Assembly: GCA_025450975.1 (NCBI GenBank)
Contig: JANWLI010000055.1
Span: 1-35,210, forward strand
Direction of reading: 5' to 3'
Source of the DNA: Candidatus Kapaibacterium sp.
GTDB taxonomy: Bacteria; Bacteroidota; Ignavibacteria; Palsa-1295
DNA: 35,210 bases
Shown: positions 1,795 through 31,220 of the stretch, one piece after another
Layout: the number at the start of each line of letters is the position of its first letter
Position numbering within the stretch: the first letter of the stretch is position 1
Position numbers and translations under genes: made by a program
Notes under the pieces: model-generated
What the model was told of the DNA's origin: nothing
The model's database searches: none
The model's input: only the letters and a program-made list of their open reading frames with translations

Positions 1795-1859
1795 AGAATT
1801 AAGGAAATCTTCCTCGCAGTTTTTACATTTAGAAACCGGTTAATAATCACAATCTTTTC

Positions 1860-2345
1860 ATGCTACCAGTATTCAAATCCAAACCATCATTCCTCATCGC
1901 CGGCTTCGAGCGATATACGGAGAACGGCGTCCCATCGATCCGCGAAGCATGGGGTGAGTTCAGCAAGCGCCATCAGGAGATCCCGAATGCCGTCAGCCAC
2001 AACACCTGCTACGGCTTCGAAGATTATTCGCGCGACTTCGATATGAATAAAGGCGGATTCCCGAAGTATTACTATCTTGCCGGACACGAAGTATCAAGCT
2101 TAGACAGTTTGCCCGAAGGTATGAAAGGTAAGCAAGTGCCCGCTGCAGATTACGCAGTCTTCACCCATCAGGGACCGATCTCTATGCTACCGCAAGTCTT
2201 TCAGGAGATCTACGGTAAGTGGATGCCAACGTCAGGATACAAGATGGACCCGGCAATAAGCGCAGACTTCGAATTCTACCCGCAGCCAATGACCGATCAC
2301 GAGAATGCCCTCGTCGAGATCTGGGTGCCGGTGGTGAAAAGTTGA
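1860..2345 (+). CDS. GyrI-like / AraC-effector-binding-domain small-molecule binding protein
   Basis: 161 aa. The pattern FLIAGFE...W.EF...IPN......YGFEDYS ... AADYAVFTHQGP ... Y.KWMP.SGY ... DFEFYP ... VEIWVPV is typical of GyrI-like effector-binding domains. Confidence 0.65.
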   Translation: MLPVFKSKPSFLIAGFERYTENGVPSIREAWGEFSKRHQEIPNAVSHNTCYGFEDYSRDFDMNKGGFPKYYYLAGHEVSSLDSLPEGMKGKQVPAADYAVFTHQGPISMLPQVFQEIYGKWMPTSGYKMDPAISADFEFYPQPMTDHENALVEIWVPVVKS

Positions 2346-2373
2346 TAGTCGATAGTTGATAGTCGATAGTTAG
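2343..2373. repeat. Tandem heptamer array (YGATAGT x4)
   Basis: tgatagtcgatagt (2343-2356) is repeated exactly at 2357-2370, followed by tag. It overlaps the TGA stop of the upstream gene and sits in the 48-nt gap between two convergent genes. Confidence 0.85.
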
Positions 2374-2393
2374 ACGAGTGTGAGATAAAGATA

Positions 2394-4109
2394 TCAGCCA
2401 TGATGTTCCTTGTGCTCTTCCAACTCGTGCATTAACTCAATGAACTCCGGCATCTCACGGATCGGATCAAGATCAGGATCGACCTTGAAAATTTCGATGT
2501 GGCGGAAGCCGCTTCGGACGCAACGCACGAGCGTCGCCATCCCGCGCTGAGGCTGGTGAGAGAGCAAGTAGGTACATGCAAGGTTGTAGAGCGACGCAGC
2601 GTCGAGCGATTCGATCGCCGAAAGTTTATCAGCCTCGGCAATCGCTTCCGCTTCACGACCTGCCATGGAGTAGATATTTGCCAGGTTTACCATTTCATGG
2701 TAGTGATCGGGATTGAAACGGAGATGGCGTTGAAAGACGGGTATGGCTTTGTCGGCAGCAATTCGTAGTCTTTCGATGATCTCTGGCGAGGTGCCGAGTT
2801 CTTTAATATAGGTAAGATAGTTGAAATGACCTTGTGTGTCATTCTCCCGAAGTCGCACATACTCTTCGCGCGCGTTTACTGCATCCTCGGGTCGTTGGAG
2901 TGCTTGTAAGGCAAAGGCAAGTACGTCATAGCCAACACTGAACGTCGGATCGGTCGCGATCGAACGCTCGGCAAATCGTAGCGCACCTTCATAATCGTCC
3001 CGGGATAGATAGATTCTGCTCATTGCACAAAGATATTGTGGGGTCGGTCCCTCAAGCTCATGTACTTTTTCAGCGGCAGTTTCCGCACGATCGAGCAACG
3101 AAGTACTCTCCCTGTAATAACGATAGAGCACACGATAGGTGAGGGATAAGTCGGCATAAGCATTTGCAAACGTTGGATCGAGTCGCACCGCCTCCTCATA
3201 GAGACTAACCGCGCGTTCATAATCAGGTTTCGTATGCCGACTGTAGTATGCGTCGGCTTTCATCCAAAGCTCATATGCTTCGGCATTTTCTGTGCCACGC
3301 TCGCGGACCTTTTTCTTTTCCGTCGCACTAAGATGCACTTTCAACCCATCGACGATCTTCTGTGTTACTGTTTCCTGCAGATCGAAAATATCGTCCATGA
3401 CACCTTTGTACGAATCCTGCCAGAGATGTTCGTACGTCTCGATATCGATAAGTGAAGCAGCGATTTTTATTCGCTCGCCAAATTTTGTCACCGTTCCCTC
3501 GACAACGTACCGGGTATCATACGTCTGGGCGATTTCGCGGGTACTTTGTTTCACACCTCGTAACTCCATTGAACTCTTGTGATCGAGCACACGGAGCGAT
3601 TTCAGCGTACTAAGCGCGCCGATCAGCTCACCGGTAAGCCCATCGGCAAACCATTCGTTATCTTTTTGCGGAGAAAGGTCGCCGAACGGCAGGATGATGA
3701 GAGACTTACGAAGGTCGACTGACGACTTGCGGGCTACACCGCGCTGATGTGAGCGGATGATGGCATCATAGTCGGTGATCGCCACGTGCTGTATCCCGGC
3801 GATCTGATATTCAAATGAAGAGGGAAGAACGACTGGGGCAATCCGCACCGGCAGAATACGCTTCCCGCGTTCCGAAGCAAGGGAAAGTTCTTTCAACACA
3901 TTTGCGGACTCCACCGACGATGGAGATAAGAGTAAGAGAAACGTCGAGCATCCTCTGATCCCCTCAACGATCTCCGTCGCCCATTGCTCGGCGCCATCGA
4001 TGCCATGGCGATCGAGCCAAACGTTGAAATCATCGGCCTCGAGACGCTCGGCAAGCGCAAGGGCCTGTTCGGAATCCCGGCGCGAGTAGGAGATGAAGAT
4101 ATCAGCCAT
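2394..4109 (-). CDS. TIR domain protein with a central alpha/beta module and a C-terminal TPR-like array
   Basis: 571 aa. The N-terminus MADIFISYSRRD...NVWLD...FLLLLSPSSVESANVLKELSLA is a canonical bacterial TIR signature, including the conserved Glu (E74). The middle part (LIILPFGDLSPQKDNEWFADGLTGELIGALS...RYVVEGTV...IKIAASLID) is the module that usually precedes TPRs in cyclase/BTAD/CadC-type proteins. The last ~300 aa are TPR-like helical repeats. No transmembrane segment seen. Confidence 0.8.
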   Translation of the reverse strand: MADIFISYSRRDSEQALALAERLEADDFNVWLDRHGIDGAEQWATEIVEGIRGCSTFLLLLSPSSVESANVLKELSLASERGKRILPVRIAPVVLPSSFEYQIAGIQHVAITDYDAIIRSHQRGVARKSSVDLRKSLIILPFGDLSPQKDNEWFADGLTGELIGALSTLKSLRVLDHKSSMELRGVKQSTREIAQTYDTRYVVEGTVTKFGERIKIAASLIDIETYEHLWQDSYKGVMDDIFDLQETVTQKIVDGLKVHLSATEKKKVRERGTENAEAYELWMKADAYYSRHTKPDYERAVSLYEEAVRLDPTFANAYADLSLTYRVLYRYYRESTSLLDRAETAAEKVHELEGPTPQYLCAMSRIYLSRDDYEGALRFAERSIATDPTFSVGYDVLAFALQALQRPEDAVNAREEYVRLRENDTQGHFNYLTYIKELGTSPEIIERLRIAADKAIPVFQRHLRFNPDHYHEMVNLANIYSMAGREAEAIAEADKLSAIESLDAASLYNLACTYLLSHQPQRGMATLVRCVRSGFRHIEIFKVDPDLDPIREMPEFIELMHELEEHKEHHG

Positions 4110-4180
4110 GCTTCAGCCTTTGAGATGTTTTCGATAATATACTCGTACTCAGGCAGTTTGACTAATCGGGCTTACGTATG

Positions 4181-6013
4181 TTACTGTATCATTTCCGAAA
4201 GTGGACGTTTCCAAACGCCTCTGAAGTTTACACCACAAAACAGATGTGTCGGGCTTGCATACAATACACTGACCGGCAAACCGGCTGGTAAGCCGGCACT
4301 CACATTGACCCAAGTTGCACCGTTATCTTTCGTAAGAAAGACTCCGTCAATTGTTGTGGCGAACACATTCGTACCGATAACCAACAGGTTGTCCACATTT
4401 TTATCTGTCAAACCGGTATTTATTTCTTTCCATGAAGCGCCCTCATCGCTCGAAAGGTAAGCACCGTCCTGTGTCCCTGCAAACAGATTAGACCCCATCA
4501 CAGCGAGCGAGAGCACATACGATTTCACGTCGGGGATGTTGACGATCTTCCAGCGATTTCCTTCATCGGTCGAACGAAAGACGAGCCCGAACGAGCTTGA
4601 TGCAAACAGTGACGACCCCATCTCGGCAAAAGAAAAGATCGACTGCGAACCCGGATATATCTGCGACCATGACGTCAGAGCATTATTCGAGAAGAACACG
4701 TTATTGAGACCGAGCGAATCTGTGATGGTTGCAAACACCTTTGTGGAACCGACAGAAAAGATTTGCGAACTGTTGATAGTGCGACCCGGAAACAGATCAG
4801 TCCAGTTTATCCCATTATTGGTCGATCGGAAGATACTCCCTTCATACGTTGAAGCAGCAAACAGTGACCCCTTATATTGTATTAGGTCAATAAATTCCGA
4901 GATGAAGATGCCGTCACGAGTGAGTCCTGCATTCGATGGTATCCATTCATCCCCATCATTGGTGGTTCGGTAGATCCCTCTTCCTCTGGTCGTAACTACA
5001 AGTTCATCTCCGGCTTTCGCAAAAGCACTCACGGGCGTATAGTTGATGATACCCGAATTGGAGAATGTCCAATTACCCCCATTGTTCGAGCGGAACACGC
5101 CAATATCGGTCCCGACTAACAGATCGTTTCCTACGACAGCAAATCCATACCGGGCATCCTTGGTCACTAATCCCGTATTTGCTGCCGACCAACTTCTTCC
5201 TGAATCGGAGGAGACAAATACGCCACTATCGAATGTACAGGCAACGATCGCCGAGCCGATGCGCGCGTAGGAAAGCAGGTACTGGCCCTCGGACAGTCCC
5301 TGCCCGGAAAAACTCCATACTTTGCCCGAATCGAGAGAGACGAATACCCCGAAATTTGTTGAAGCAAACAGTCTGCTACCTACTGCACCTAACGTAGAGA
5401 CGGTTGTAAGTTTTGGAAGACTGTCTTTGACAATTGCCCAGGTCTGGCCTTTATCCGGTGAGCGGTAGAGGCTTGTATCCGTCGCAGCATACAGGTACCT
5501 CCCCATTGCCGCTGAAACCCAGACCTGTTCGTTGGCAGCCCATCCCTTCTTCGCGGCATTCCAGGTTGTCCCTTTATCGGTAGAAATATAAAACGTATTT
5601 GCAAATATTTCCTGAACACACAACGTGGTGTCGATCACTAAAAAGGCTGCATGATATTCATTTGGAGGAAGCCCTTTGGTGATGTTCTGCCACGTAATAC
5701 CGCTATCGAGCGAGCGATAGACGCTGTCCGAGGCTGCGGCAATGAGCGTGCCGCCCACCGTAGTCATGGCCGTCATGTAACGGACGCCGTGAAACCCATC
5801 CTGTCGCTTCCAGGTACTGCCATGATCGGTTGAAGAGAAGATGCCGTTGGTCGTTCCGGCGAACACGCGGTCGCCAACTACCGCAAAGGGCCCGACACTT
5901 CCGCCAAGGGGGCCGTTGGTTTGGACCCACTGCGCCTGAGTACCGGATACAAAAAATAGCAAACTGACAAGTGAGGCAACAGAGCGGAAGCAGCGGTGGG
6001 AATCGTGTTTCAT
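4181..6013 (-). CDS. Secreted BNR/Asp-box repeat beta-propeller protein
   Basis: Track ORF is 4181..6040. I prefer the ATG at 6013, which gives the signal peptide MKHDSHRCFRSVASLVSLLFFVSGTQAQ. About 12 Asp-box motifs (S-x-D-x-G-x-T/S-W): STDHGSTW, SLDSGITW, STDKGTTW, SPDKGQTW, SLDSGKVW, SSDSGRSW, SNNGGNW, TNDGDEW, STNNGINW, STDEGNRW, SSDEGASW, TKDNGATW. Confidence 0.75.
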   Translation of the reverse strand: MKHDSHRCFRSVASLVSLLFFVSGTQAQWVQTNGPLGGSVGPFAVVGDRVFAGTTNGIFSSTDHGSTWKRQDGFHGVRYMTAMTTVGGTLIAAASDSVYRSLDSGITWQNITKGLPPNEYHAAFLVIDTTLCVQEIFANTFYISTDKGTTWNAAKKGWAANEQVWVSAAMGRYLYAATDTSLYRSPDKGQTWAIVKDSLPKLTTVSTLGAVGSRLFASTNFGVFVSLDSGKVWSFSGQGLSEGQYLLSYARIGSAIVACTFDSGVFVSSDSGRSWSAANTGLVTKDARYGFAVVGNDLLVGTDIGVFRSNNGGNWTFSNSGIINYTPVSAFAKAGDELVVTTRGRGIYRTTNDGDEWIPSNAGLTRDGIFISEFIDLIQYKGSLFAASTYEGSIFRSTNNGINWTDLFPGRTINSSQIFSVGSTKVFATITDSLGLNNVFFSNNALTSWSQIYPGSQSIFSFAEMGSSLFASSSFGLVFRSTDEGNRWKIVNIPDVKSYVLSLAVMGSNLFAGTQDGAYLSSDEGASWKEINTGLTDKNVDNLLVIGTNVFATTIDGVFLTKDNGATWVNVSAGLPAGLPVSVLYASPTHLFCGVNFRGVWKRPLSEMIQ

Positions 6014-6042
6014 TGCTCGTTCGATAATGGTGATGAACATTC

Positions 6043-7740
6043 TTAGTGCGAAACGATAAATCGCTGTGCAGAACTCGAAGCGGTACCGGCTTGACGTATG
6101 GTATACACCCCATCCAAGAATTTACCGACATCGATCTGGCTATGGATGGTAGTGATGACACCGGACCAGCAGAGTCGTCCGGCAACATCGGTGATCTCAA
6201 GCATTGCCGGAGTGCCGGACAGCCCGTATACATAGAGCGTACTACCGGCAGGATTTGGGTAGACGCCGAAGGTTGCCGTATGCAGTGCTGGGTTGCCCGG
6301 TACGCTTGCGTGTTGTTCGTTCAAGGCAGCGTGCGCATTGATCCTCCCATAGCCATGGTACTTGTCCCATCCTGCAACATCTTCGGAGGCAAGGCCGACC
6401 ATGTCTTCTGCAGTGCGTGTGATGATCGCCGAGAGCGAATCGGCGGTGCGAGTCGGATCTTGCGCTAGCAGAAGCGATGCAAGCCCGCTGACGTATGCCG
6501 TCGACAGCGATGTCCCCCAGGAGAAGTAGTCGGGATGAGAATCGGATACATAGATGAGTCCATAAATAAAATTACCGGGAGCAACGACCTTAATATGCGG
6601 GCCGAAATTACTCCCGCCGCTTCCGCTATACGACGGGGAGCCAGCTGATCCGGTACGATGATCGTTCTCATTTGTCGAGCCAACTGCAAATGCATGGTCA
6701 CATGCCGCTGGGTAATAGGACGTGGAAGTATTGCTATTTGCCATTCCACACACGACAAGGACACCGGCGGCATGTGCGGCAGTGATGGCCTCCTGCATTG
6801 CCTGGTTCCTCACTGTTCCGGCGATAGAGATATTAATAATACGAGCCTTATTATCCACTGCGTAGTTGATCGCTTCGGCTACGCGCGAGAACGGCGTTCC
6901 ACCGTTCCTGTCGAGCACTTTGCAGATCATCAACTTGCATTTCCAATCGACACCTGCGTAGAGACCGCCATCGCCGCCATTGGCTGCAAGGACTCCCGTG
7001 ACGAATGTTCCATGTCCGTTGTCATCAATTGGCAGATTATCCTTATCGGCAAAATCCCATCCGACAACATCGTTCAGATATCCATTCGAATCATCATCGA
7101 TGCCGTTACCCGGTATTTCATCTGTATTGCGCCAGATCCTTCCTGTAAACGAAGGATGGTCGAACTTCAGCCCTGCATCGATGACGGCAACGATTACCGA
7201 AGAATCGCCGGTAGTGAGCTGCCAGGCTTCGGGCATATCTATATCGGCGTCGTAGGTGGCAGTTGCATTAAACGTACCATCGTTGTCAAACGCCCATTGC
7301 CTCTGAAAGTATTGGACATTCGGTGCAACGCCCTGAGGTAATTGTGCCGGAGAGGACAACGCATGTGCAAGCGCATCCTCTTCTACATATTCAAAAAGAT
7401 CGGTCTCAGTATACTCGGCAATCGCTCGTTCGATATCAACAGGATTCCGGAAGGTAAGCGAATAGGTTGTGCGGTAGTTTGCAGAGGTTGAATTGTGCGA
7501 ACTGATTTCGTGAATATCTGCAACACCGTATTCTTCACTCAAGATTTCAAACCGTGTAGCAGGCATCTTTATGGATGGTACGGACCCAACACCGACGGGA
7601 TTTGTGGAGTATGGCCGTTTGAATTTTACGATCAGGCGATCGCCCATCGCTCTGTCTTGTAATACCTGGGCAGAAAGCTGAGCGCCTAAGCATACAATTC
7701 CAGCAACGAAAAGAATTGAAACTGTGCGGAGTGAGTTCAT
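6043..7740 (-). CDS. Subtilisin-like serine protease (peptidase S8) with a T9SS C-terminal sorting domain
   Basis: Catalytic triad contexts are VAVIDAGL (Asp), DDNGHGTFVTG (His) and WGTSLSTAYVSGLASLL (Ser). The tail GVYPNPAGSTLYVYGL...GVYTIRQ...RFIVSH looks like a T9SS C-terminal sorting domain. Track ORF extends to 7803. The ATG at 7740 gives the signal peptide MNSLRTVSILFVAGIVCLGAQLSAQ. Confidence 0.85.
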   Translation of the reverse strand: MNSLRTVSILFVAGIVCLGAQLSAQVLQDRAMGDRLIVKFKRPYSTNPVGVGSVPSIKMPATRFEILSEEYGVADIHEISSHNSTSANYRTTYSLTFRNPVDIERAIAEYTETDLFEYVEEDALAHALSSPAQLPQGVAPNVQYFQRQWAFDNDGTFNATATYDADIDMPEAWQLTTGDSSVIVAVIDAGLKFDHPSFTGRIWRNTDEIPGNGIDDDSNGYLNDVVGWDFADKDNLPIDDNGHGTFVTGVLAANGGDGGLYAGVDWKCKLMICKVLDRNGGTPFSRVAEAINYAVDNKARIINISIAGTVRNQAMQEAITAAHAAGVLVVCGMANSNTSTSYYPAACDHAFAVGSTNENDHRTGSAGSPSYSGSGGSNFGPHIKVVAPGNFIYGLIYVSDSHPDYFSWGTSLSTAYVSGLASLLLAQDPTRTADSLSAIITRTAEDMVGLASEDVAGWDKYHGYGRINAHAALNEQHASVPGNPALHTATFGVYPNPAGSTLYVYGLSGTPAMLEITDVAGRLCWSGVITTIHSQIDVGKFLDGVYTIRQAGTASSSAQRFIVSH

Positions 7741-7844
7741 AGAGCCAAATCTACTGAATAAAAAGTAACTTGATCTAAAACAAGACTGTTCCTTGGCGTA
7801 CATAGTTGGAGGTATAGGCCATGGGGATGGGTTTAGGGATTAGG

Positions 7845-8071
7845 GGCCTCTATTCACAGATGCGGCAAGCAGCAGTGTCGGTACCTGCAAATGTTGCAGA
7901 AGGTATTGGACGAGATTCGCCAAGAAATTTATCCGCCATCTTTCAATCGCGAAAGGATCTTTGGCAGAGCTGGAAACACATATTACAATCGCAGCGAAGC
8001 TGCATTACATAAACCAAGATCAATTCAAGGCTGGGCGGACTCCAACGATCACTTACAGAAAAGCTCTCTAA
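7845..8071 (+). pseudogene. Four-helix-bundle protein (23S rRNA IVS protein / Avd family), N-terminally truncated and frameshifted
   Basis: Frame of ORF 7821..8012 reads GLYSQMRQAAVSVPANVAEGIGRDSPR. After a frame change near 7915-7925 a second frame reads KFIRHLSIAKGSLAELETHITIAAKLHYINQDQF...stop (8069-8071). Joined, these align with residues ~36-100 of the intact paralog at 14338..14700 (YGLTSQLRRASVSIPSNIAEGHGRRGSKELSHHLSIAKGSLCELETQILLSVRLHFLSKED). The first ~35 codons are missing. Confidence 0.65.
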
Positions 8072-8094
8072 CTCAAACCACTGACCACTAGCCC

Positions 8095-8715
8095 TTACCC
8101 GAGAAACTTATTCCTGGCCTGCTGCAGCTCTTTGAGCAGATACTTGATATTCGGATCTTCCGACTTTTCGGCAAGCGGAAAATAATGCTTCGTCGTTTCC
8201 ATCACATACTTGATGGGGTTACGCTTGACGTTAAACTCCAGACATCGGAACGTGTCAAGGCGGTCGCAGAGCTTAAGCATCTTTGCATCGTCGGTGGCGC
8301 CGGTTAGGCGTTCGACATACTCTTTTTCGATGATCTCACGCATCTCGCCCGAGGCTTTAATGTCTTTCGTCAACATCGAGACGAGGTAGCTTGTGTAGGC
8401 GCCGAAGTTGTACTCAAGGATCTCGGGTGTCAGGACCTGCGAATCTTCGAGGACGTCGTGCAGCAATGCTGCGCAGATGATCGAGATATCGCTGATACCG
8501 AGTTCGTCGACGATGATCTTGGCGACGCGGCTTGGATGCCAGAAATACGGCGTACCATCCGGCCGTTTCTGGAATTCGTGGACGCTTTCGGCCATATCGT
8601 AGGCGTCAAGTGTCACGTTCACATCAAGGGCAGTAAGGTTGCGTTCACGGAGCATCCGCTCCATCGCAGCGCGTTCGAGATACGTCTCGTTATATTTAAA
8701 GACTGGTAATTCCAA
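8095..8715 (-). CDS. HD-domain (p)ppGpp hydrolase-like protein (RelA/SpoT-type small alarmone hydrolase)
   Basis: 206 aa. The blocks H..RVAKIIVDELG...ICAALLHDVLEDS and AKMLKLCDRLDTFRCL match the HD/ED and KLADRLHNMR-type motifs of the SpoT/Mesh1 hydrolase domain. No synthetase domain. The annotated start is TTG, and an ATG (Met18) is an alternative. Confidence 0.75.
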   Translation of the reverse strand: MELPVFKYNETYLERAAMERMLRERNLTALDVNVTLDAYDMAESVHEFQKRPDGTPYFWHPSRVAKIIVDELGISDISIICAALLHDVLEDSQVLTPEILEYNFGAYTSYLVSMLTKDIKASGEMREIIEKEYVERLTGATDDAKMLKLCDRLDTFRCLEFNVKRNPIKYVMETTKHYFPLAEKSEDPNIKYLLKELQQARNKFLG

Positions 8716-8787
8716 GTATGCAAAAATACGACTATGGCGCCCGATAAACGCCGGAGAGAAAAATAGCCGTTCTAGTGCACGAATGCC

Positions 8788-10947
8788 TTAGCGGCCGACC
8801 GAGGGAGAGTAACTAAACCTGATATCCTCGCAATACATTTCAATCTTGATGCGGCGCTGCCCATCTGCGCCTGCGGGAAGCTGCGTGAGCTTACGAGGAC
8901 AGATCTTTGAAAGATCAAGCCTAAAGAGCTCTGCCGTGCCATCGTTAGCGAGGTAGATGAGCGATCCGGACTTTTCGAGCTGCGGCGTACAGCCTCCTGC
9001 GAGCCTGAAACTTTCAAAGTAATCGAGCCAGGGCTGCGCATCGGTTTGGGATAAAGTGAACGTCAGATTCGGATGATCGATCTTGCCGGGTTCCTTGAAA
9101 TAGTCCCTGCTATTATCGGCTGTTTGCTGTGTCGTCTTCTGCTTGAAGACGATCGACTCGACTTTGCTGACTTTCGCAGTGGGCAGACCGGCGATCTCGA
9201 GCTTGAAGTTCGCAGGCGACCATGTCTTCTGTGCAGTTGCCGGCGGTTCGATCTTTTTATTTGGCTCCGGCCTGACTTCGTGCATCGCTGCCGGCTGAAC
9301 CTTGATCGTCATGTATGCCGGATCCTTCGAGGCAGCATCGAGTGCGGGCATTTGGATCTCGGAAATGAGTGCAGCCTGGAATTCGCGGCGTGCACGCTCG
9401 TGAAAATTGAAGTCTTCCATGATGATCGCGCCACTCTTGCGCAAGTACTCTTTATTCCACGAGCTCTCGATCCAGTCATAGATCGCCGGCGTCATGCTCA
9501 GGCCCAATTGCATGGCGAAATCGCCTGCAACGCTTGGCGCTGTAGCCGCGCCTTGAAAACTCTGTAGATATCCTGCAGTTTTTCCGTCGATCTCTATGAG
9601 AAATTTGCCGGATACATAGCCGCGCCGGTTCGCATCGGAACTCCAGGTCGTTTCGGATTGCGACGCGCCTTCATCCCATTGGCGGCCGCCAATCCCACTT
9701 CCAGCGCTATCTTCGGATGACGGGCCCATAGCGATCGTGATCTCGTGATGGCCGAACTGTCCGTTCTTTTCGGCAACAAGTTTCAGAAAGTATGATTTAT
9801 TCGGTTTAGCTGTCCCCGGCGAAAGCCAGAGATTCGACGGGATCGGCTCTTTCTTGAGCGAGATGTAGCGTGGTGTGCCGACTTCGCGCAGATACCAATT
9901 GTAGTTGAACGGGCCACCGGTTGCCGAGCGTGCGCGGCCGGTGAATTCGTGCGGGGCGTCCGGATCGAGTGGCATCGTCTGCGGCGCAGTGATACGGACT
10001 TCGATCGGTGTCTTGACGACGATCGGTTCGCCGAGGCGATTGATATCGGGAATACCGTCGCCATCGATGTCGATATTGCCTTCGCCACAATCATCGGAAA
10101 CCGTAAACGAGAACGGTGTTGCCCAGCCATCCTGATAGCTTACCAACGGCCGTCCTTGAAAATCAAGTGCGCGGACGCTCCAGGCATAGCGCTTCCCTAC
10201 TTCGGGATAAAAATATTCGACGGGCCAGATCAGCTCCGTGAGTCCCATCAGTTCGCGCTCAAATACCGGGCGTGCACTGCGAAGCGCCGTCGATGGATTC
10301 TGTCCGGCGAGAACTTCGAAGACTGAGAGTCGGTAACGAACGGGCTCCATCGGAGCCGGAACCACGGGAGTCCAGCGGAACATCGGGCGCGGATTGCCGG
10401 AGTTCATCTCGATGACATTGTTCTGCCCAAGTTTGCACAGGACTGCCTGATCGGCAGGCAGGATCAGATATGGAGTCGTATAGGAAACGATCGTAACGCA
10501 CACCGGTGGCAAGAGTGCCAGTTGCTCGAGTGTCGTAGCATCAATGATCTTTATCGTGATGCAGATCGTGCCGTCGGGAATGCGCCCCGATCGCTTCGTG
10601 CTTTCGTCGAGGTTATCTTCGAAGTGCATGGCAGACATCGGTACGATATTCTCACCGTAGAAGGTGCGTATGCCAGGGTTAATCGTTTGCGGCTGCAACT
10701 TGTCGGCATTCGTGTAAGCGACAAGTTTGTTGTTATGCGAGATCTCGGCTAATATCTTCACATCGGTCGGAACCGATGGTGCATTCGTGACGATCAGCGT
10801 TACCGTATTAACACGCGATGACCAGTCCGAGAGATACGGCGACGGGTTCGGCGAAAAGATCAGCTGAGCAGACCATTGCGAGTAAGCAAACTGCGCTGCA
10901 AACGTGCAGACAAGGAAAATAGACTGTAGAAGGCGCTTTACGATCAT
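8788..10947 (-). CDS. Secreted 719-aa protein with two C-terminal tandem contractile-tail tube (Pvc1/Afp1/T4 gp19-like) domains
   Basis: Signal peptide MIVKRLLQSIFLVCTFAAQFAYSQ. The N-terminal ~440 aa are unassigned and contain an IDIDGDGIPD calcium-site-like motif. Residues ~443-556 read KFLIEIDGKTAGYLQSFQG...IYDWIESS...RKSGAIIMEDFNFHERARREFQAALISEIQMPALDAASKDPAYMTIKVQ. Residues ~578-715 read NFKLEIAGLPTAKVSKVESIVFKQK...EPGKIDHPNLTFTLSQTDAQPWLDYFESF...EKSGSLIYLANDGTAELFRLDLSKICPRKLT...IKIEMYCEDIRFSY. Both follow the tail-tube pattern block by block. Confidence 0.7.
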   Translation of the reverse strand: MIVKRLLQSIFLVCTFAAQFAYSQWSAQLIFSPNPSPYLSDWSSRVNTVTLIVTNAPSVPTDVKILAEISHNNKLVAYTNADKLQPQTINPGIRTFYGENIVPMSAMHFEDNLDESTKRSGRIPDGTICITIKIIDATTLEQLALLPPVCVTIVSYTTPYLILPADQAVLCKLGQNNVIEMNSGNPRPMFRWTPVVPAPMEPVRYRLSVFEVLAGQNPSTALRSARPVFERELMGLTELIWPVEYFYPEVGKRYAWSVRALDFQGRPLVSYQDGWATPFSFTVSDDCGEGNIDIDGDGIPDINRLGEPIVVKTPIEVRITAPQTMPLDPDAPHEFTGRARSATGGPFNYNWYLREVGTPRYISLKKEPIPSNLWLSPGTAKPNKSYFLKLVAEKNGQFGHHEITIAMGPSSEDSAGSGIGGRQWDEGASQSETTWSSDANRRGYVSGKFLIEIDGKTAGYLQSFQGAATAPSVAGDFAMQLGLSMTPAIYDWIESSWNKEYLRKSGAIIMEDFNFHERARREFQAALISEIQMPALDAASKDPAYMTIKVQPAAMHEVRPEPNKKIEPPATAQKTWSPANFKLEIAGLPTAKVSKVESIVFKQKTTQQTADNSRDYFKEPGKIDHPNLTFTLSQTDAQPWLDYFESFRLAGGCTPQLEKSGSLIYLANDGTAELFRLDLSKICPRKLTQLPAGADGQRRIKIEMYCEDIRFSYSPSVGR

Positions 10948-11110
10948 TATTGCCTTTCTTGGGCGTCCTGCGAATATACCACATCTTCATTAGAAGGACG
11001 TTGGCTTGGTGGCCTTTGTGACAAATGGGGCAAATATCGGTTCTCACGAAAACCTGTGGGGGCTGCAACGTGTTGTATTATCGTATTATTATCCAGGGTT
11101 GTTGTTGGTT

Positions 11111-12505
11111 ATGTATTTACGGTTCGTCGGATTCATCTTACTCTTCATTTCTGCTATTCCTCTCTTTGCTCAGGAGGATAGCCTGACTGTCATTGGCACG
11201 AAGGACGTTATTACCGGCCTCGATACTCCCTGGGAGATCCTTTGGGGACCGGATAATCATATATGGATGACAGAGCGCTATGGGCGTATCAGCCGTGTCA
11301 ACCCGGAAACAGGAGAACTTACGCCGCTCATCACCATGCCGGAAGTCTATGAGACGGCCGAGGCCGGACTTATGGGAATGACACTGCATCCGCATTTTCC
11401 CGATCCGCCTTATCTCTACACTGCCTATACCGGCAAGGTTGACGATTCAACTTACGGTGTTTACATTGTTCGCTTCACTTATGCGCGGGATACGCTGGTC
11501 GACAAGCAGATCCTGATCGATCCACGACGAATTATCGGTGGCACGATTCATGACGGCTGCCGCCTTCTGATCGATAGCAACGACATGACGATGTACGTCA
11601 CGACCGGCGATGGCGAGGATTATTGGTATCCGCAGACCGATTCCATTTATAATGGCAAGGTGCTCCGCATGAACCTCGATGGCTCGGTGCCGGACGACAA
11701 TCCCATTCCCGGCAGTCATGTATGGTCTAAAGGCCATCGGAATGCGCAAGGTCTTGCCTACGGACCGCATCACTTGATGTATACTACGATGCACGGCACC
11801 TTTGAGGAAGATGAGATCAACATCATTGTCAAAGACGGAAATTACGGTTGGCCGAATATCAACGGTAAAGCTGATTTTGGTGATGAAGTTGCGTTCGCTA
11901 GTGACTCATCGGCCATTGACCCGATCTATACCTGGACTCCGACGATCGCACCGGGCGGATGTCTGTACTACGACCACGAGGAATTCCCTCAACTCCGCAA
12001 TTCCCTGCTGATCGCCATCCTCAAAGGCGATGGCGACGGTAACAGCTATATGATAGCTGCGCATCTCGACAGTGCGGGGACTGCCGTGACCGATACCGTG
12101 CGCTACTTCTACGGAGAATACGGCAGGTTTCGGGATGTCGCTATCGCTCCCGATGGAAGAGTCTTCATCTCGACAAGCAATAGAGATTCAAAGGGATTTC
12201 CAAGACAGGACGACGATCGTATTCTCATGCTCTACGCTGCGCCCCAGGTATCGGTCGCAGTTGATGAGCAGTCCACGGTTTCGATCTCACCAAATCCAAT
12301 GACTGGTGCTGCTTCGTTCGTGACGCTGCCGCACGAATTTGTCGGCGCTTCGTATGATATCGTCGATGCCTTGGGGCGTATCGTTCGGACCGGGACCCTG
12401 GAGTTCACCCAATCGCGTATCGAGCGTGGCACGCTTGCCGAAGGCGTTTATATCCTCCGCGTGCAGGGCGATGTTCCCTGCTCTACGCGGTTCGTAGTTA
12501 ACTGA
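11111..12505 (+). CDS. PQQ-dependent sugar (glucose/sorbosone) dehydrogenase family protein with a T9SS C-terminal sorting domain
   Basis: GLDTPWEILWGPDNHIWMTER.GRI..V, GLMGMTLHP.F, SKGHRNAQGLAYGP and EDEINIIVKDGNYGWP are typical of soluble GSDH beta-propellers. The tail ISPNPMTGAASFVTL...GVYILRVQG...RFVVN is T9SS-sorting-domain-like. Track ORF starts at 11006. The ATG at 11111 gives the leader MYLRFVGFILLFISAIPLFAQ. Its stop overlaps the convergent stop of the next gene by 8 nt. Confidence 0.8.
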   Translation: MYLRFVGFILLFISAIPLFAQEDSLTVIGTKDVITGLDTPWEILWGPDNHIWMTERYGRISRVNPETGELTPLITMPEVYETAEAGLMGMTLHPHFPDPPYLYTAYTGKVDDSTYGVYIVRFTYARDTLVDKQILIDPRRIIGGTIHDGCRLLIDSNDMTMYVTTGDGEDYWYPQTDSIYNGKVLRMNLDGSVPDDNPIPGSHVWSKGHRNAQGLAYGPHHLMYTTMHGTFEEDEINIIVKDGNYGWPNINGKADFGDEVAFASDSSAIDPIYTWTPTIAPGGCLYYDHEEFPQLRNSLLIAILKGDGDGNSYMIAAHLDSAGTAVTDTVRYFYGEYGRFRDVAIAPDGRVFISTSNRDSKGFPRQDDDRILMLYAAPQVSVAVDEQSTVSISPNPMTGAASFVTLPHEFVGASYDIVDALGRIVRTGTLEFTQSRIERGTLAEGVYILRVQGDVPCSTRFVVN

Positions 12506-14219
12506 GTTTCTTGAGGATCGCTTCGAACTCCGGGAGGTTGCGCAGTGGATCGAGGTCGGGATCGGTGCGAATCAACTTCAGGTTGCCAAAGCCCTTGTCG
12601 ACAGCAAGAGCGATCGCCTTAATTCCGTCGTCTAGTTTTTTATGCCGAATGAGCATACAGCCGACATTGTAAAGACTAAGTCCATCGCTGTGAGAAGAAG
12701 CTAAGAGTCTGTTGACGATATTCAGAGCTTTTTCTGTTTCGTGAAGGTCGAAGTAAAAGCTCGCAAGCCCTGCCAGGAGGAATTGATCGTCGGGCTGAAG
12801 TTTGCGTCTGTGCTCGAAGAGCGGCAAGGCGCGCTCGGCAACGTACGTTTGTCCTTGTGTGTCGCCGGTTTTCGAATACTGCACATACAGATTCCAGAAA
12901 CCGAAGATATTTTCCGGATTGACTTCCGTGCACTTCTGATACCACTCAATAGCTTGGATCGTCTTTCCTGCCTGGGAGTAAACAAACCCCATGCTCAAGT
13001 AACCCCGGATGATATTGGGTTCGAGCTCGATAATTTTTTGGGAGGCATCGATCGCTGCATCGAAATTGCCGCGGATCGTCTCGAGCGTTGCAAGGGCATG
13101 ATAGGCAACTGTGATCGTATCATTGATCGCAAGCGACCTATCGATCAGTGCTGCGACTTCGTCAAGCCACTCTTTGCGCTGTTCGTAAACACGATAGAGG
13201 ACGAGCAATGCCGACGCCTTGATCGCCATAGCAGCAGCAAAGCCGGGATCAATAGTCAGCGCTTCGTCGAGCAACTCAAGGGCATGCGTAATCGCTTGCT
13301 TTGTGCTCTGTTCGATGAAGCTTCCGGCACGCATATAAAATTCATAGGCTTCGGCGCTTTCGGTCAGACGCGCGGTTAGCTTCTCTTTATCTATCAGCGA
13401 GAGTGTGACTTTCAGCGCATCGATGGTCTTTCGTGCAACGGCTTCCTGGATGTCAAAGATATCATCCATGACGCCGCGATGCGCCTCATTCCAGATATAC
13501 TCGGTCGAGCGCGAGTCGTAGAGAGCGACAGTGATCTTGATCTGCTCGCCGTGCTTGCGAACTGCACCTTCGATGCAGTAGCGGACTTTCAGCGCTTGTG
13601 CAATTGCCTGCAGGCTTCCCTTGTAGCCTTTGTAGCCCATGGCAGTGCGGCGATCGGTGACGCGAAGCGACTGGATGCCGGAGAGTGCGTTGATCAGTTC
13701 GTCGGCAAGGCCGTCGGCGAACCACTCGTTGTCCTTGCCTGCTGAGAGATCTTCGAATGGGAGAACGGACAGCGAGACGCGTTCGTCTTTCGGTGCAGGT
13801 TGCTGAGCGGGTTGTGGCGCAACGGGCGTCGAGCCCGCGACGGCGCCGATTCGATCAAGGCCTCGAAGAATACCGTCGAAGTCGGCGTACTTGACTCGCT
13901 GCAGACCCGCCAGTTGGTAGCGAAGGTCGGCAGTGAGGTCGACGTGTTCGAGGTCGACGGGGATGATGGTCTTGCGCGACTCCGATGCGAGTGAGACTTC
14001 TTTGACAACATTATGCGATGCGACGGAGCTTTCGGAGAGCAGAAGGAGCACTACCTTGCACGTATCGATAGCGGTGACGATCTCGCGGGACCAGCTCGTG
14101 GCCGCTTCGATGCCTTGCGTATCGATCCAGATCGAACATCCGGATGCTCGCAAGCGCTCTGCTAAGGAGAGCGCTTGTTCTTTATCGCGGCGTGAATATG
14201 ATATGAAGACGTCTGACAC
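12498..14219 (-). CDS. TIR domain protein with a central alpha/beta module and a C-terminal TPR-like array (paralog of 2394..4109)
   Basis: 573 aa with a GTG start. (M)SDVFISYSRRDKEQALSLAERL...SIWID...VLLLLSESSVASHNVVKEVSLA is a TIR domain with E74 conserved. LSVLPFEDLSAGKDNEWFADGLADELINALS...RYCIEGAV...IKITVALYD is the central module, followed by TPR-like repeats. By manual count 49 of the first 80 residues are identical to the 2394..4109 protein. Confidence 0.8.
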   Translation of the reverse strand: MSDVFISYSRRDKEQALSLAERLRASGCSIWIDTQGIEAATSWSREIVTAIDTCKVVLLLLSESSVASHNVVKEVSLASESRKTIIPVDLEHVDLTADLRYQLAGLQRVKYADFDGILRGLDRIGAVAGSTPVAPQPAQQPAPKDERVSLSVLPFEDLSAGKDNEWFADGLADELINALSGIQSLRVTDRRTAMGYKGYKGSLQAIAQALKVRYCIEGAVRKHGEQIKITVALYDSRSTEYIWNEAHRGVMDDIFDIQEAVARKTIDALKVTLSLIDKEKLTARLTESAEAYEFYMRAGSFIEQSTKQAITHALELLDEALTIDPGFAAAMAIKASALLVLYRVYEQRKEWLDEVAALIDRSLAINDTITVAYHALATLETIRGNFDAAIDASQKIIELEPNIIRGYLSMGFVYSQAGKTIQAIEWYQKCTEVNPENIFGFWNLYVQYSKTGDTQGQTYVAERALPLFEHRRKLQPDDQFLLAGLASFYFDLHETEKALNIVNRLLASSHSDGLSLYNVGCMLIRHKKLDDGIKAIALAVDKGFGNLKLIRTDPDLDPLRNLPEFEAILKKLS

Positions 14220-14243
14220 ATAGCAAAGTTACGGCAGGCGGAC

Positions 14244-14296
14244 GGGCAGACGGGCAGACGGTCAGACGTTCAGAGGGGGCGGACGGTCAGGCGTTC
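14244..14296. repeat. Left arm of the GC-rich short-period array flanking the four-helix-bundle gene
   Basis: Octamer-like units gacgggca gacgggca gacggtca gacgttca, then gagggggc ggacggtcaggcgttc. Imperfectly complementary to 14724-14775. Confidence 0.8.
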
Positions 14297-14337: not shown

Positions 14338-14700
14338 ATGTCGAACATTACTACCTACCGTGACCTACTTGTGTGGCAAGAGGCAATGAACCTCTGCGAA
14401 CTTGTATATGAATTGACACATCGGTTTCCCGATAGAGAATTATATGGTTTAACTTCTCAATTGCGTCGAGCATCGGTTTCCATCCCTTCCAATATTGCCG
14501 AAGGACACGGAAGACGAGGTTCAAAAGAGTTGTCGCATCATCTTTCGATTGCAAAAGGATCACTTTGCGAACTCGAGACACAAATACTCTTGTCCGTTCG
14601 ACTGCATTTTCTTTCAAAGGAAGATGGAGACAGATTCTGGACTAAAGTTCAGGACGTTGGAAGATTGCTGAATGCCTTTATCAGATCTTTGCTACCGTAA
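14338..14700 (+). CDS. Four-helix-bundle protein (23S rRNA intervening-sequence protein / Avd family)
   Basis: 120 aa. YRDLLVWQEAMNLCELVYELTHRFPDRELYGLTSQLRRASVSIPSNIAEGHGRRGSKELSHHLSIAKGSLCELETQILLS is the hallmark of this family (W.KA..L....Y.....FP..E.Y.L..Q.RRA..SI..NIAEG.....). Confidence 0.85.
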   Translation: MSNITTYRDLLVWQEAMNLCELVYELTHRFPDRELYGLTSQLRRASVSIPSNIAEGHGRRGSKELSHHLSIAKGSLCELETQILLSVRLHFLSKEDGDRFWTKVQDVGRLLNAFIRSLLP

Positions 14701-18444: not shown

Positions 18445-20229
<1,785 letters not shown>

Positions 20230-20238
<9 letters not shown>

Positions 20239-20430
20239 GATTTAAGATGTAAGATGTAAGAGTGGGATGCCGCGTACGGGAGTGCGCGGATTTTTTGTGA
20301 TGTAACAGTAAAGTGGGACGTTGTCGCTTCGCACTCATGCATCATAGTTTTGTGACGATGATTAGCAAATGTATCTGATAGCGCACATTCCGACGTTAAG
20401 TTAAATCTTACATCTTAAATCTTACATCTT
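20230..20430. repeat. Perfect 26-bp inverted repeat made of heptamer units, enclosing 149 bp
   Basis: The left arm aagatgtaagatttaagatgtaagat (20230-20255) includes the carB stop codon. The right arm atcttacatcttaaatcttacatctt (20405-20430) is its exact reverse complement. The unit is TAAGATK with a 7-nt period. Confidence 0.9.
20270..20297 (+). terminator. Probable carB terminator
   Basis: ccgcgtac / gtgcgcgg stem (8 bp including one G-U pair), loop ggga, then tttttt. Lies inside the inverted-repeat element. Confidence 0.6.
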
Positions 20431-20505: not shown

Positions 20506-20931
20506 TTACTTTACGACGGTGACCTTATCGGCTACCTGAACGCCGCCTTCGTACTTCGAGACGACGTAGTACATGCCGGGCCGGACTTTCTCAGAATCCA
20601 CCTTATAGGTATTGAGTCCGCTGCGTACTTTCCCTGCATGCAGGATAGCAATAACGTCACCACGTGAATTCAGCAATGTGACCTCGGCATAACCACTTTT
20701 CGCCGATACCATTTCAACGTTGAGCTTCTTAGATGTGCCTGGCACAATTTTGACCGTAAACGAGAGATCGTTTGTGCTGTCTGTGGCAGTACGTTCAGGT
20801 GCTGATTGCTTGGTGTCGTTTGATACATTGGCAGAAGTGTCGGAATTAGTAACACGAGCGGCCTGGGGCTGCGCGAAGGCGGCTCCGGCCACGAAAATCA
20901 CTAAAAACGCTATGTAAATTGCTCTACCCAC
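20506..20931 (-). CDS. Small secreted protein consisting of little more than a signal peptide and a T9SS C-terminal sorting domain
   Basis: 141 aa. Leader MGRAIYIAFLVIFVAGAAFAQ, then a ~35-aa low-complexity Ser/Thr/Asn linker. The rest is a sorting-domain-like beta sandwich (FTVKIVPG...AEVTLLNSRGDVIAIL...GLNTYKVD...PGMYYVVSKYEGGVQVADKVTVVK). Confidence 0.6.
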   Translation of the reverse strand: MGRAIYIAFLVIFVAGAAFAQPQAARVTNSDTSANVSNDTKQSAPERTATDSTNDLSFTVKIVPGTSKKLNVEMVSAKSGYAEVTLLNSRGDVIAILHAGKVRSGLNTYKVDSEKVRPGMYYVVSKYEGGVQVADKVTVVK

Positions 20932-22370: not shown

Positions 22371-22405
22371 ATAATTCGTAATTCGTAAATCGTAATTCAT
22401 AATTT
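22371..22405. repeat. Tandem heptamer array (AATTCGT-like x4)
   Basis: ataattcgtaattcgtaaatcgtaattcataattt. cgt/cat recurs every 7 nt (22377, 22384, 22391, 22398). Confidence 0.8.
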
Positions 22406-24044: not shown

Positions 24045-24069
24045 AACCCGGCCTATGCCGGGTTTTTTT
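24045..24069 (+). terminator. Rho-independent terminator (shared convergent junction)
   Basis: aacccggc ctat gccgggtt followed by tttttt. Overlaps the stop codon (24068-24070) of the convergent giant gene. Confidence 0.75.
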
Positions 24070-27652: not shown

Positions 27653-28429
27653 ATGCGCTACATTTTACTCCTTACCCTCCTTCCCCTGGCAGCCACGGCT
27701 CAGCTGAAGATCGACTCGATCCGGATCACGCAGGAATTGATGCCATATAGTGGTACCGACGGCACCGGACTGTCGTCCTGGAGCAGGACGATCATTCCGA
27801 TAAATGACACCGTCGTCTTCGATGAGTCCAATGGGATCATGCATTACTCCACGTCCACATCGATGGGAAGTGTATCCTTCGCGCATGACAGCAATGCGCA
27901 AACGGTTCACTCCTTTACACTTACTACTAGTACCGGCCATCCCGATGATATTCAGGGTTACTCCGGAATGAACTGGGGATTTTTAAAAGACACCATCGTT
28001 CGTGAAGGAAGGGATTTTCGAATTTTCCTCTACAGTGAAGAGCTTAAGCCTGATAATTTCGGCTTTTCCGGAATAGACAAAGTGCGTATCGGCCCTGGTC
28101 AATATACAGAAAGCACCTCCTATAGCACGCTTCCGATAGCAGGTTCATGGGTTGAGGTTACCATCTTCGGATCTGTCCCGCTTGATGTCGCAATCCCAGA
28201 ACGTCCTTTGTTTGCAGTCTATCCGAATCCGGCATCGCAGATCATTATCATTGCTGGGATATTAGAGACCCAGCCGATCAGGATATTCGATCTTACCGGC
28301 CGTGAGTGCGATCTTCCAAGAATAATAGCAGCTGAGAACGAGACAAGCCTTGATATTTCACAGTTGCGAAATGGTATCTACTGGTTGCAGGCCGGAGTAC
28401 AATCGCAGAAACTTGTCGTGGCGAAGTAA
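27653..28429 (+). CDS. Hypothetical secreted protein with a T9SS C-terminal sorting domain
   Basis: Leader MRYILLLTLLPLAATAQ. The tail AVYPNPASQIIIIAG...IRIFDLTGRE...GIYWLQAGVQSQKLVVAK is T9SS-sorting-domain-like. Confidence 0.6.
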   Translation: MRYILLLTLLPLAATAQLKIDSIRITQELMPYSGTDGTGLSSWSRTIIPINDTVVFDESNGIMHYSTSTSMGSVSFAHDSNAQTVHSFTLTTSTGHPDDIQGYSGMNWGFLKDTIVREGRDFRIFLYSEELKPDNFGFSGIDKVRIGPGQYTESTSYSTLPIAGSWVEVTIFGSVPLDVAIPERPLFAVYPNPASQIIIIAGILETQPIRIFDLTGRECDLPRIIAAENETSLDISQLRNGIYWLQAGVQSQKLVVAK

Positions 28430-31186: not shown

Positions 31187-31214
31187 TTTTTACTTTTAAC
31201 TTTTTACTTTTTAC
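31187..31214. repeat. Tandem heptamer array (TTTTWAC x4)
   Basis: tttttac ttttaac tttttac tttttac, ending 6 nt upstream of the rnhB GTG start. Confidence 0.8.
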
Positions 31215-31220
31215 TTTCCC

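Follow-up and report, generated by a model that had tools for sequence, protein, structure and literature searches.

Bacterial TIR domains have so far been understood almost wholly through phage-defence operons, namely Thoeris, CBASS, pAgo and Avs. TIR domains are also found together with tetratricopeptide repeats (TPR). E. coli TIR-II, an anti-phage system that sometimes holds TIR and TPR in one protein, needs its catalytic residues, and ~30% of TIR-II systems carry an Avs-like ATPase (PMC11350192). BcTir/BcTpr and ThsI-type proteins combine a TIR-like N-glycosidase with TPR and depend on catalytic residues as well (10.1101/2023.05.26.542521; 10.64898/2025.12.03.692087), and a preprint reported NADase-dependent anti-phage activity for a TIR-like and TPR protein or pair (10.1101/2023.05.26.542521). 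Stand-alone TIR proteins were set aside by design in a 2025 survey of bacterial TIR systems (10.64898/2025.12.03.692087). Besides these TIR and TPR combinations, two other kinds of protein that matter here are already known: one-component regulators such as CadC and ToxR, and "TolB-like + TPR" proteins whose output is a kinase, a cyclase or a winged helix-turn-helix (wHTH) domain. We describe here a gene at 2394..4109, on the minus strand of a 35,210-nucleotide stretch of Candidatus Kapaibacterium sp. DNA (contig JANWLI010000055.1 of assembly GCA_025450975.1; hereafter the window). The TIR domain of its product takes the place of the output in a widespread scaffold of one-component receptors, since the same sensor carries a Ser/Thr kinase, a wHTH domain or a class III cyclase in its relatives.

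Domain architecture and sensor scaffold

The gene, which we call copy 1, is an intact open reading frame (ORF) of 571 codons that encodes a soluble protein of 571 aa with a TIR domain, a CadC-type sensor and TPR; a profile of the family covers it end to end (858 bits). Its N-terminal TIR domain (residues 1-123; 3741..4109, minus strand, as are all its parts) matches Pfam TIR_2 (PF13676) over residues 4-112 with E 7.8e-23 and 81.7 bits against a cut-off of 28, which places it in the TIR superfamily. A flexible linker (residues 124-134; 3708..3740) leads into an alpha/beta module resembling FlgO, TolB_N and CadC_C1 (residues 135-255; 3345..3707). This module contains the motif LPFxDLSxxxDNEWFADGL, whose DNEWFADGL portion occupies residues 150-158 (3636-3662). 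The remainder (residues 256-571; 2397..3344), which putatively binds the ligand, is an all-helical TPR solenoid that is matched by several Pfam TPR models over residues 296-503 and by NF047558, and that carries a TPR_END_plus cap (NCBIfam; residues 507-560; 2430-2591) ahead of the stop codon at 2394-2396. Chance is ruled out as the source of the features observed in copy 1 and its surroundings.

An AlphaFold2 model built from 119 homologs (pLDDT 92.1, pTM 0.73) consisted of a TIR fold over residues 1-123, in which the beta-alpha fold spans 4-123, a linker over 124-134, where pLDDT falls below 50 at 127-130, an alpha/beta part over 135-255 and an unbroken helical solenoid over 262-570. Residues 135-255 had no direct Pfam match, and no NTPase match was obtained for them with Pfam, NCBIfam, the model or Foldseek. 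A STAND, SIR2 or other enzymatic middle domain was considered, and none was present in Pfam or NCBIfam searches or in the model. Neither copy 1 nor its paralog in the window (copy 2, described below) has a hydrophobic stretch of transmembrane (TM) grade: the Kyte-Doolittle maximum over 19 residues was 1.12 for copy 1 and 1.57 for copy 2, compared to 2.2-2.6 for paralogs that do bear a TM helix. Because it has no TM helix, the copy-1 protein is cytoplasmic. These results agree with a preliminary description of the sequence, which had recognized an N-terminal TIR with a conserved Glu74, a DNEWFADGL-type alpha/beta module with TPR-like repeats, no STAND, SIR2 or TM partner and, from the last, a cytoplasmic protein. 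It had also proposed profile searches with TIR_2 and TPR, which recovered both domains above cut-off, and the structure prediction and comparison given here, which yielded a confident three-part model and one non-generic match for the sensor.

That match, obtained with Foldseek for the alpha/beta module and the helices that follow it, was the periplasmic domain of CadC (3ly7; TM-score 0.67, target-normalised; root-mean-square deviation 4.5 A over 298 columns; 12% identity). It was the sole non-generic fold match in the PDB, the remaining matches being consensus TPRs, OGT and APC/C. It agrees with the weak NCBIfam matches of the sensor region to CadC (E 6.7e-7 for copy 1, 1.6e-13 for copy 2) and HilA/EilA, which were accompanied by TIGR04510 mod_pep_cyc, and with the Pfam matches of the sensor's relatives to FlgO, TolB_N and CadC_C1. 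Copy 1 therefore has the two-part sensor fold of CadC/ToxR-like receptors (E. coli CadC, 3LY7), in which an alpha/beta subdomain precedes a helical bundle. It differs from these receptors in that its output is a TIR instead of an OmpR-type wHTH, in that both window copies lack a TM helix and are cytoplasmic, and in that the helical part is lengthened into a TPR solenoid with a TPR_END cap. The resemblance extends to topology in TM-anchored paralogs (6/130; see below), which have a cytoplasmic output, one TM helix and a sensor outside.

We searched a collection of 5.8 billion proteins with the TM helix and sensor part of a TM-bearing paralog, excluding its TIR, and counted output domains among the best 120 sensor relatives from the precomputed Pfam column. 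Protein kinases formed the largest group (Pkinase, 46), followed by wHTH domains (Trans_reg_C, 32), TIR_2 (24) and class III cyclases (Guanylate_cyc, 6); 12 relatives had no output domain listed. Among these best 120, E-values were at or below 1e-76 for the TIR group and then stepped to 1e-36 to 1e-28 for the kinase, wHTH and cyclase group. Using hmmscan, we independently confirmed proteins composed of Pkinase, FlgO/TolB_N and TPR, and multi-sensor proteins composed of BTAD, CadC_C1 and FlgO. The preliminary description had remarked that cyclase or DNA-binding outputs are what such a scaffold normally bears; this is right, and kinases (46/120) are to be added. The "TolB-like + TPR" receptors (COG5616-type; TIGR04510) have a homologous sensor and, like copy 1, are built so that different N-terminal outputs can be placed on one sensor; they differ in the output domain itself. 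The tandem arrays, the copy numbers of at least 20 and the shuffling described below were seen in the TIR subfamily, the one subfamily examined.

At E <= 1e-30, an exhaustive search found TIR and alpha/beta module together in 420 representative clusters, which shows a diverse family and no oddity of one genome. At E <= 1e-10, the sensor/TIR search reached more than 34,000 representative clusters, TIR-only matches included.

Some very large proteins were also matched. Three of them (P0241, 2837 aa; P0245, 2283 aa; P0257, 1894 aa) have an N-terminal wHTH/BTAD and 4-5 concatenated alpha/beta-helical sensor units and no TIR; in these giant regulators, the sensor unit is evidently multiplicable within one chain. 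We ruled out that giant proteins with multiple matches are fused TIR arrays: they are either BTAD/wHTH proteins with 4-5 sensors or unrelated multi-TIR proteins. The latter are P0351 (956 aa) and P0366 (610 aa), with three and four Pfam TIR_2 stretches, respectively, and P0282 (2023 aa), with seven matched stretches; all three match at TIR level only. Reading of the P0282 sequence also gives a TM segment, with a WD40-like propeller at the C terminus.

The TIR domain and described TIR proteins

The putative catalytic residue of copy 1 is Glu74, encoded by the codon GAA at 3888..3890 on the minus strand, where its coordinates were verified. This residue aligns with the Glu of SARM1 WVHKEI, which is the catalytic residue E642 of that protein, and with the Glu of Cat1 CWDEL; by the alignment to the E642 position, copy 1 has the catalytic Glu of NAD-cleaving TIRs. 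Glu at position 74 is invariant among the 130 full-length family members from species genomes (130/130) and throughout two protein alignments. When the family TIR profile was compared to the PDB, the nearest structures were Cat1 (7e-9), SARM1 (6e-8) and AbTir (4e-7), together with PdTIR and TIR-APAZ. The TIRs of these proteins cleave NAD and are mostly switched on by oligomerization. To our knowledge, TIRs that serve only as scaffolds do not retain the catalytic Glu. From these comparisons, the copy-1 TIR probably belongs to the NAD-cleaving, enzymatic class. Its sequence lies closer to effector TIRs that deplete NAD than to signal producers of the ThsB type; the NCBIfam Thoeris model ThcB4 gave 42 bits against a cut-off of 220, and ThsB-type models stayed far under their cut-offs.

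SARM1, whose TIR is among the closest solved ones and has its catalytic Glu aligned with Glu74, is a TIR NADase under the control of a helical-repeat domain within its own chain, and packing of its TIR domains activates it. Unlike SARM1, the window protein has no SAM domain, carries its TIR at the N terminus, so that the order is reversed, and has the CadC-like/TPR part instead of ARM.

The likeness of copy 1 to TIR-II, BcTir/BcTpr and ThsI consists of a TIR or TIR-like NAD-processing domain with TPR. Copy 1 holds TIR and TPR in one protein, as TIR-II does in one protein or gene pair, and the likeness is at domain level only (TIR plus generic TPR). In contrast to copy 1, the described systems have no FlgO/TolB_N/CadC-like module and come from defence contexts in Proteobacteria and Firmicutes. 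Thoeris ThsB and TIR-STAND proteins (Avs / TIR-NLR) share the TIR with copy 1, and PADLOC gave domain-level matches to ThsB, Aga_TIR, SAVED_TIR and TIR-NLR. Unlike in Thoeris, however, no effector gene that could read a TIR product (SIR2/SLOG, Macro, TM) is present in the window, and none recurs among 114 genes flanking the family's arrays. Copy 1 also lacks the STAND NTPase that stands between TIR and repeats in Avs and TIR-NLR; the PADLOC match to TIR-NLR covers the TIR only (E 0.003).

As an analogy only, the family also resembles plant TNL and animal TLR clusters. Like these, it joins a TIR to a solenoid sensor and occurs in tandem clusters with birth-and-death and domain-wise recombination, and its TM members place the solenoid outside, a TM helix in the membrane and the TIR inside. 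The repeat type is different, NB-ARC is absent, the domain order is opposite, and evidence of common descent concerns the TIR only.

Our literature search found no description of a TIR on this sensor scaffold, of TM-anchored TIR receptors, of a form with both TIR and cyclase, or of arrays with at least 20 paralogs, and the family is apparently undescribed. Public annotation names its members "TIR domain-containing protein", "TolB-like protein" or, wrongly, "adenylate cyclase".

Paralog arrays and their genomic surroundings

At E <= 1e-10, a first homology search gave at least 728 proteins, nearly all of 560-590 aa and with 58% identity at best; the few with named sources came from Ignavibacteriota or Candidatus Kapabacteria metagenome-assembled genomes (MAGs). 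Scanning one genome per species, we confirmed 110 places in 25 assemblies, which are labelled Kapaibacterium, Ignavibacteriota/Ignavibacteriae or unclassified Bacteroidota/Bacteroidetes, with one unclassified "bacterium" MAG in addition. Within 6 kb on either side of 77 places lay 152 members; one MAG had at least 23, another 18 and a third 13, all of these per-MAG numbers being lower bounds.

Same-strand tandem arrays contained up to eight genes (locus L021), seven (L005) and six (L010). The commonest junction type, present at 37/77 array junctions, was the 8-nt overlap ATGGCTGA, in which the stop TGA of the upstream gene lies inside ATG GCT GAy, the codons for the "MAD" of the next gene. Larger apparent overlaps are explained by the simple longest-ORF caller that set ORF starts in the related loci. 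The frequent 8-nt overlaps imply that array members are co-transcribed, and their translation is probably coupled.

Among the 130 full-length members, the TIR and the alpha/beta module had mean pairwise identities of 61% and 62%; this mean fell to 47% for the first helices and to 34% over the remaining TPR region (336-562). Across the family, the output is conserved and the TPR sensor variable. Within genomes, the identities of the three segments were discordant. Two pairs (L061:9679 vs L022:2407 and L014:6001 vs L061:4471) had a TIR identity of 0.97 but a TPR identity of 0.19-0.29, and a reverse pair (L010:6001 vs L010:4260) had identities of 0.49 in the TIR, 0.37 in the middle and 0.85 in the TPR. 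This discordance points to segment exchange among paralogs. Two members, L045 6001-7737 and L072 6001-7794, are frameshifted, each being broken into 2-3 ORFs in an otherwise normal locus; they are probably pseudogenes, an assembly error in the MAG being the other possibility. Copy 1 is one gene of this recombining repertoire of at least 20 paralogs per genome (at least 23 in one MAG).

A clear TM helix between TIR and sensor was found in 6/130 full-length members (in L005, L011, L012, L022, L061 and L065), a lower bound, as the scan patterns were derived from soluble members. The helix sits at the position equivalent to the copy-1 linker (residues 124-134), the topology is that of a cytoplasmic TIR, a TM helix and an outside sensor, and all six lie within arrays beside soluble members. 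Two composite proteins, L012:6465-9680 (1071 aa) and its relative P0243 (1063 aa), consist of a complete soluble TIR-sensor-TPR unit followed by a TM helix and a second sensor. Such a fusion of the soluble with the membrane form suggests that the two cooperate. Another composite, P0293 (751 aa; L088 8001-10256, on a 67-kb contig), has TIR_2 (residues 4-120), a class III cyclase (144-305) and the family sensor. Divergently upstream of it, in this one case, lies a gene for a 177-aa Macro-domain protein (L088 7370-7903) that might read or erase ADP-ribose products.

Some arrays occupy conserved positions. In seven species, mnmE-mnmG-murQ is followed by an array of 1, 1, 2, 2, 2, 2 or 5 family ORFs, one of the 2-ORF cases (L045) being a single frameshifted gene, and a second conserved site adjoins lexA in six species. 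The commonest Pfam families in the 114 flanking genes were Por_Secre_tail (12), MurQ-type SIS (7), sortilin/BNR (5), LexA (4) and DegT (4), and no conserved partner gene recurred among these flanks.

The window itself holds two members within 12 kb, as the preliminary description had noted. Copy 2 (12498..14219, minus strand; 573 aa, GTG start) has the same architecture by Pfam and NCBIfam and is 38% identical to copy 1 over its full length (BLASTP E 1e-130), with identities of 0.54 in the TIR, 0.54 in the middle and 0.21 in the TPR. Its TIR_2 match scores 81.8 bits, and its Glu74 codon is at 13998-14000. At the copy-1 stop, an 8-nt overlap of the canonical kind leads into a stretch of nine codons, ATGGCTGATATCTTTATCTCACACTCG (2375..2401, minus strand), that encodes MADIFISHS, CAT GGC TGA of copy 1 being read over its ATG GCT GAT. 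Similarity to the family stops after these nine codons, for which tblastn gave 8/9 identity. Elsewhere in the window, the corresponding 20-mer matched only where copy 1 starts, with one mismatch, and it had 0 matches in 100 shuffles; tblastn detected no further family fragments in the window. Because a canonical junction and nine member codons stand at the copy-1 stop, we read the stretch as the relic of a lost downstream array member, and the two window copies as a remnant of arrays or as scattered from them.

Short intergenic tandem repeats with a period of 7-8 and 4-6 copies, each with its own unit, are present at several places. One (AGTCGAT, 2340-2371) follows directly after the relic, and another (GGCAGACG/GACGGTCA, 14237-14290) lies directly upstream of copy 2. 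Others are AAGATGT (20230-20261), TTAAATC (20401-20430), TAATTCG (22372-22404) and TTTTTAC (31187-31217). They resemble the heptamer STRR (short tandemly repeated repetitive) sequences of cyanobacteria.

Upstream of copy 1 on the same strand lie a gene for an S8 peptidase with a type IX secretion system (T9SS) sorting tail (6043-7803) and, 2 nt from it, a gene for a BNR/sortilin propeller (4181-6040). The spacer between the propeller gene and copy 1 is 71 nt long (4110..4180, minus strand). A promoter and terminator scan of 1800-8800 gave counts no higher than in shuffles. In the spacer, the one sigma-70-like match (4164-4136, 9/12) was weak and no better than expected from shuffles, and there was no terminator-like site, in keeping with the earlier impression that no terminator is visible there. 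The preliminary description was right that copy 1 follows these two genes on the same strand across a 71-nt gap. As a conserved context, however, the protease-propeller gene string did not stand up: S8 genes adjoin the family in 0/79 related loci, and BNR/sortilin propellers lie near arrays in 13/79, with variable orientation, distance and size (409-1338 aa). The S8 and BNR proteins have signal-peptide-like N-termini and look exported. Proteins with a T9SS tail number five in the 35 kb (6043-7803, 11006-12505, 20506-20931, 24068-27496 and 27653-28429; ~5 of ~30 genes), and since exported cargo is very frequent in these genomes, it will often stand beside TIR arrays. A second propeller gene in the window (24068-27496) is distant from both TIR genes.

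Other genes of the window encode a CarB-like enzyme, QueA, RNase HII, an ECF sigma/anti-sigma pair, an HTH protein and an HD_4 hydrolase. The last (8095-8715, minus strand; 206 aa; RelA/SpoT-type HD) is small-alarmone-hydrolase-like and lies between the two TIR copies. Also on the minus strand, 8788-10947 encodes a 719-aa protein with a signal-peptide-like N-terminus and, in its C-terminal half, two stretches like phage T4 gp19 or contractile-injection tube proteins. It has no PHROG match and no other injection-system genes nearby, and seems to be an orphan with a tube domain that is apparently exported. Divergent from copy 2, the plus-strand gene at 14338-14700 encodes a four-helix-bundle protein of the 23S rRNA intervening-sequence type (E 6e-37) with a weak bAvd-like match; no reverse transcriptase is present in the window. 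The CarB-like protein (18445-20238, plus strand; 597 aa) resembles the large chain of carbamoyl-phosphate synthase, has one ATP-grasp half and MGS, and is about half the usual CarB length.

Likely mode of action and role

On balance, and with moderate confidence, we regard the copy-1 protein as a cytoplasmic, single-chain, ligand-gated TIR NADase receptor, leaning towards a danger or non-self (immunity-like) role. The variable TPR/CadC-like sensor would keep the TIR domains apart or occluded until a cue binds. Binding would shift the protein to an oligomeric state in which packed TIR domains create composite active sites, and Glu74 would then cleave NAD+, which would either lower NAD+ or make an ADP-ribose-derived nucleotide. 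The NADase activity, the ligand-driven oligomerization and the biological role are inferred by analogy: SARM1, Cat1, TIR-APAZ, AbTir and plant TIRs all need TIR-TIR packing for activity. The organism would possess a repertoire of co-expressed paralogs, mostly soluble and some membrane-anchored, each probably with its own sensor specificity. If this repertoire is immunity-like, it would stand at stable chromosomal sites and not in mobile defence islands. What favours such a role is that the sensor is diversified, that the genes undergo birth-and-death and exchange of segments, and that the TIR subtype is nearest to depleting effectors.

Several observations weigh against this reading. PADLOC, which the preliminary description had suggested, was run on the two copies, on 27 other ORFs of the window and on the 114 flanking genes, and revealed no defence context: in the window, there were only TIR-domain-level, subtilase-level and HTH-level matches, and the flanks gave only generic singletons (IscS-like, MotB-like). 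No integrase, transposase or tRNA is present in the window, and neither there nor in the flanks are defence genes or mobile elements enriched as they are in defence islands. Array positions beside mnmE-mnmG-murQ (seven species) and lexA (six) are atypical of known anti-phage systems. The preliminary description had held that fixed housekeeping neighbours would speak against an island-associated gene, and some arrays come close to this picture. The other outputs that this scaffold bears are without exception classical signalling domains, and one variant joins TIR to a cyclase, which suits physiological signalling equally well or better. At least 20 co-expressed NADases per cell would require very tight autoinhibition. 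The restriction of the family to one lineage is based on pattern-seeded scans and few source names. As PADLOC matches were domain-level or generic only, we ruled out a known defence system. A phage or prophage origin was also ruled out; matches on viral contigs were at TIR level only (residues 1-110), and unknown neighbours in the window had no PHROG match. The family looks more like a repertoire of receptors than like an ordinary gene for phage defence.

A second explanation we consider possible, although on the unlikely side. The proteins would be physiological signalling receptors with no role in conflict or immunity, whose TIR makes a nucleotide second messenger, for example a cyclic ADP-ribose isomer, in response to environmental or metabolic ligands. 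The kinase, wHTH and cyclase outputs on the same scaffold, the dual-output protein P0293, the TM-anchored members with an extracytoplasmic sensor, the stable core-genome sites with housekeeping neighbours and the lack of defence context in the window and the 114 flanks all fit this explanation, as does the single Macro-domain gene beside P0293. It is harder to reconcile with the lack of a conserved downstream receptor or effector gene near the arrays, with a TIR that is nearer to NAD-depleting effectors than to ThsB-type producers (42 vs 220 bits with the Thoeris model), or with tandem birth-and-death, segment shuffling and pseudogenes, which are commoner in conflict genes.

A bolder and rather doubtful extension of the receptor reading is that the arrays are a bacterial counterpart of the Toll-like receptor system. 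TM members would be the receptors, and soluble paralogs would be cytoplasmic receptors or adaptors and amplifiers in heterotypic TIR assemblies. Segment exchange would renew the combinations of sensor and TIR, and NAD+ cleavage would be the readout of what would amount to a germline-encoded, recombining set of innate receptors.

We think it quite unlikely that copy 1 is a canonical stand-alone anti-phage abortive-infection gene, in which the TPR would recognize a cytoplasmic phage protein and the TIR deplete NAD+. The mechanism is that of the receptor reading, and the difference lies in the claimed role only; as a mechanism, the one-protein sensor-effector that the preliminary description put forward is plausible. 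The sensor and TIR architecture with its invariant Glu and the diversified sensor part would be expected of such a gene. TIR-II, with its TIR and TPR, protects E. coli against phages (PMC11350192), and SpbK is a single-protein TIR sensor-effector (PMC12847820). However, defence genes are not enriched around the 79 loci or in the window, the window contains no mobile element or tRNA, arrays stand in vertically inherited syntenic positions, copy numbers of at least 20 per genome are far above those of known defence genes, and some members sense outside the cytoplasm.

Very improbable, in our view, is a non-enzymatic TIR that would serve TIR-TIR assembly only, like animal TLR/MyD88 adaptors, and link the membrane receptors of the family to other proteins. 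Soluble and TM-anchored members do share arrays, and fusions do join the two kinds, but the catalytic-type Glu is kept in 130/130 members despite otherwise free divergence, and the nearest solved relatives are enzymes. Finally, a three-gene operon system with the upstream S8 protease and BNR propeller is hardly credible and we rejected it: the shared strand, the gaps of 2 and 71 nt and the terminator-free spacer would allow it, but the comparative data contradict it, as S8 never recurs and propellers recur loosely and in mixed orientation, the S8 and BNR products look exported whereas the TIR protein is cytoplasmic, and adjacency to T9SS cargo is expected by chance.

Returning to the ligand-gated receptor, the family puts a probably enzymatic TIR at the output position of an ordinary one-component receptor, beside kinase, cyclase and DNA-binding versions, and its membrane-spanning members would couple an outside cue to NAD+ chemistry in the cell. 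Since the sensors are swappable onto reporter outputs, they offer a practical route to the ligands of this very large family of sensors. Should the TIR prove active, NAD+ cleavage would be a general signalling output in bacteria, and the arrays would provide a tractable bacterial repertoire of clustered, recombining TIR receptors, an organization so far tied to plant and animal innate immunity.

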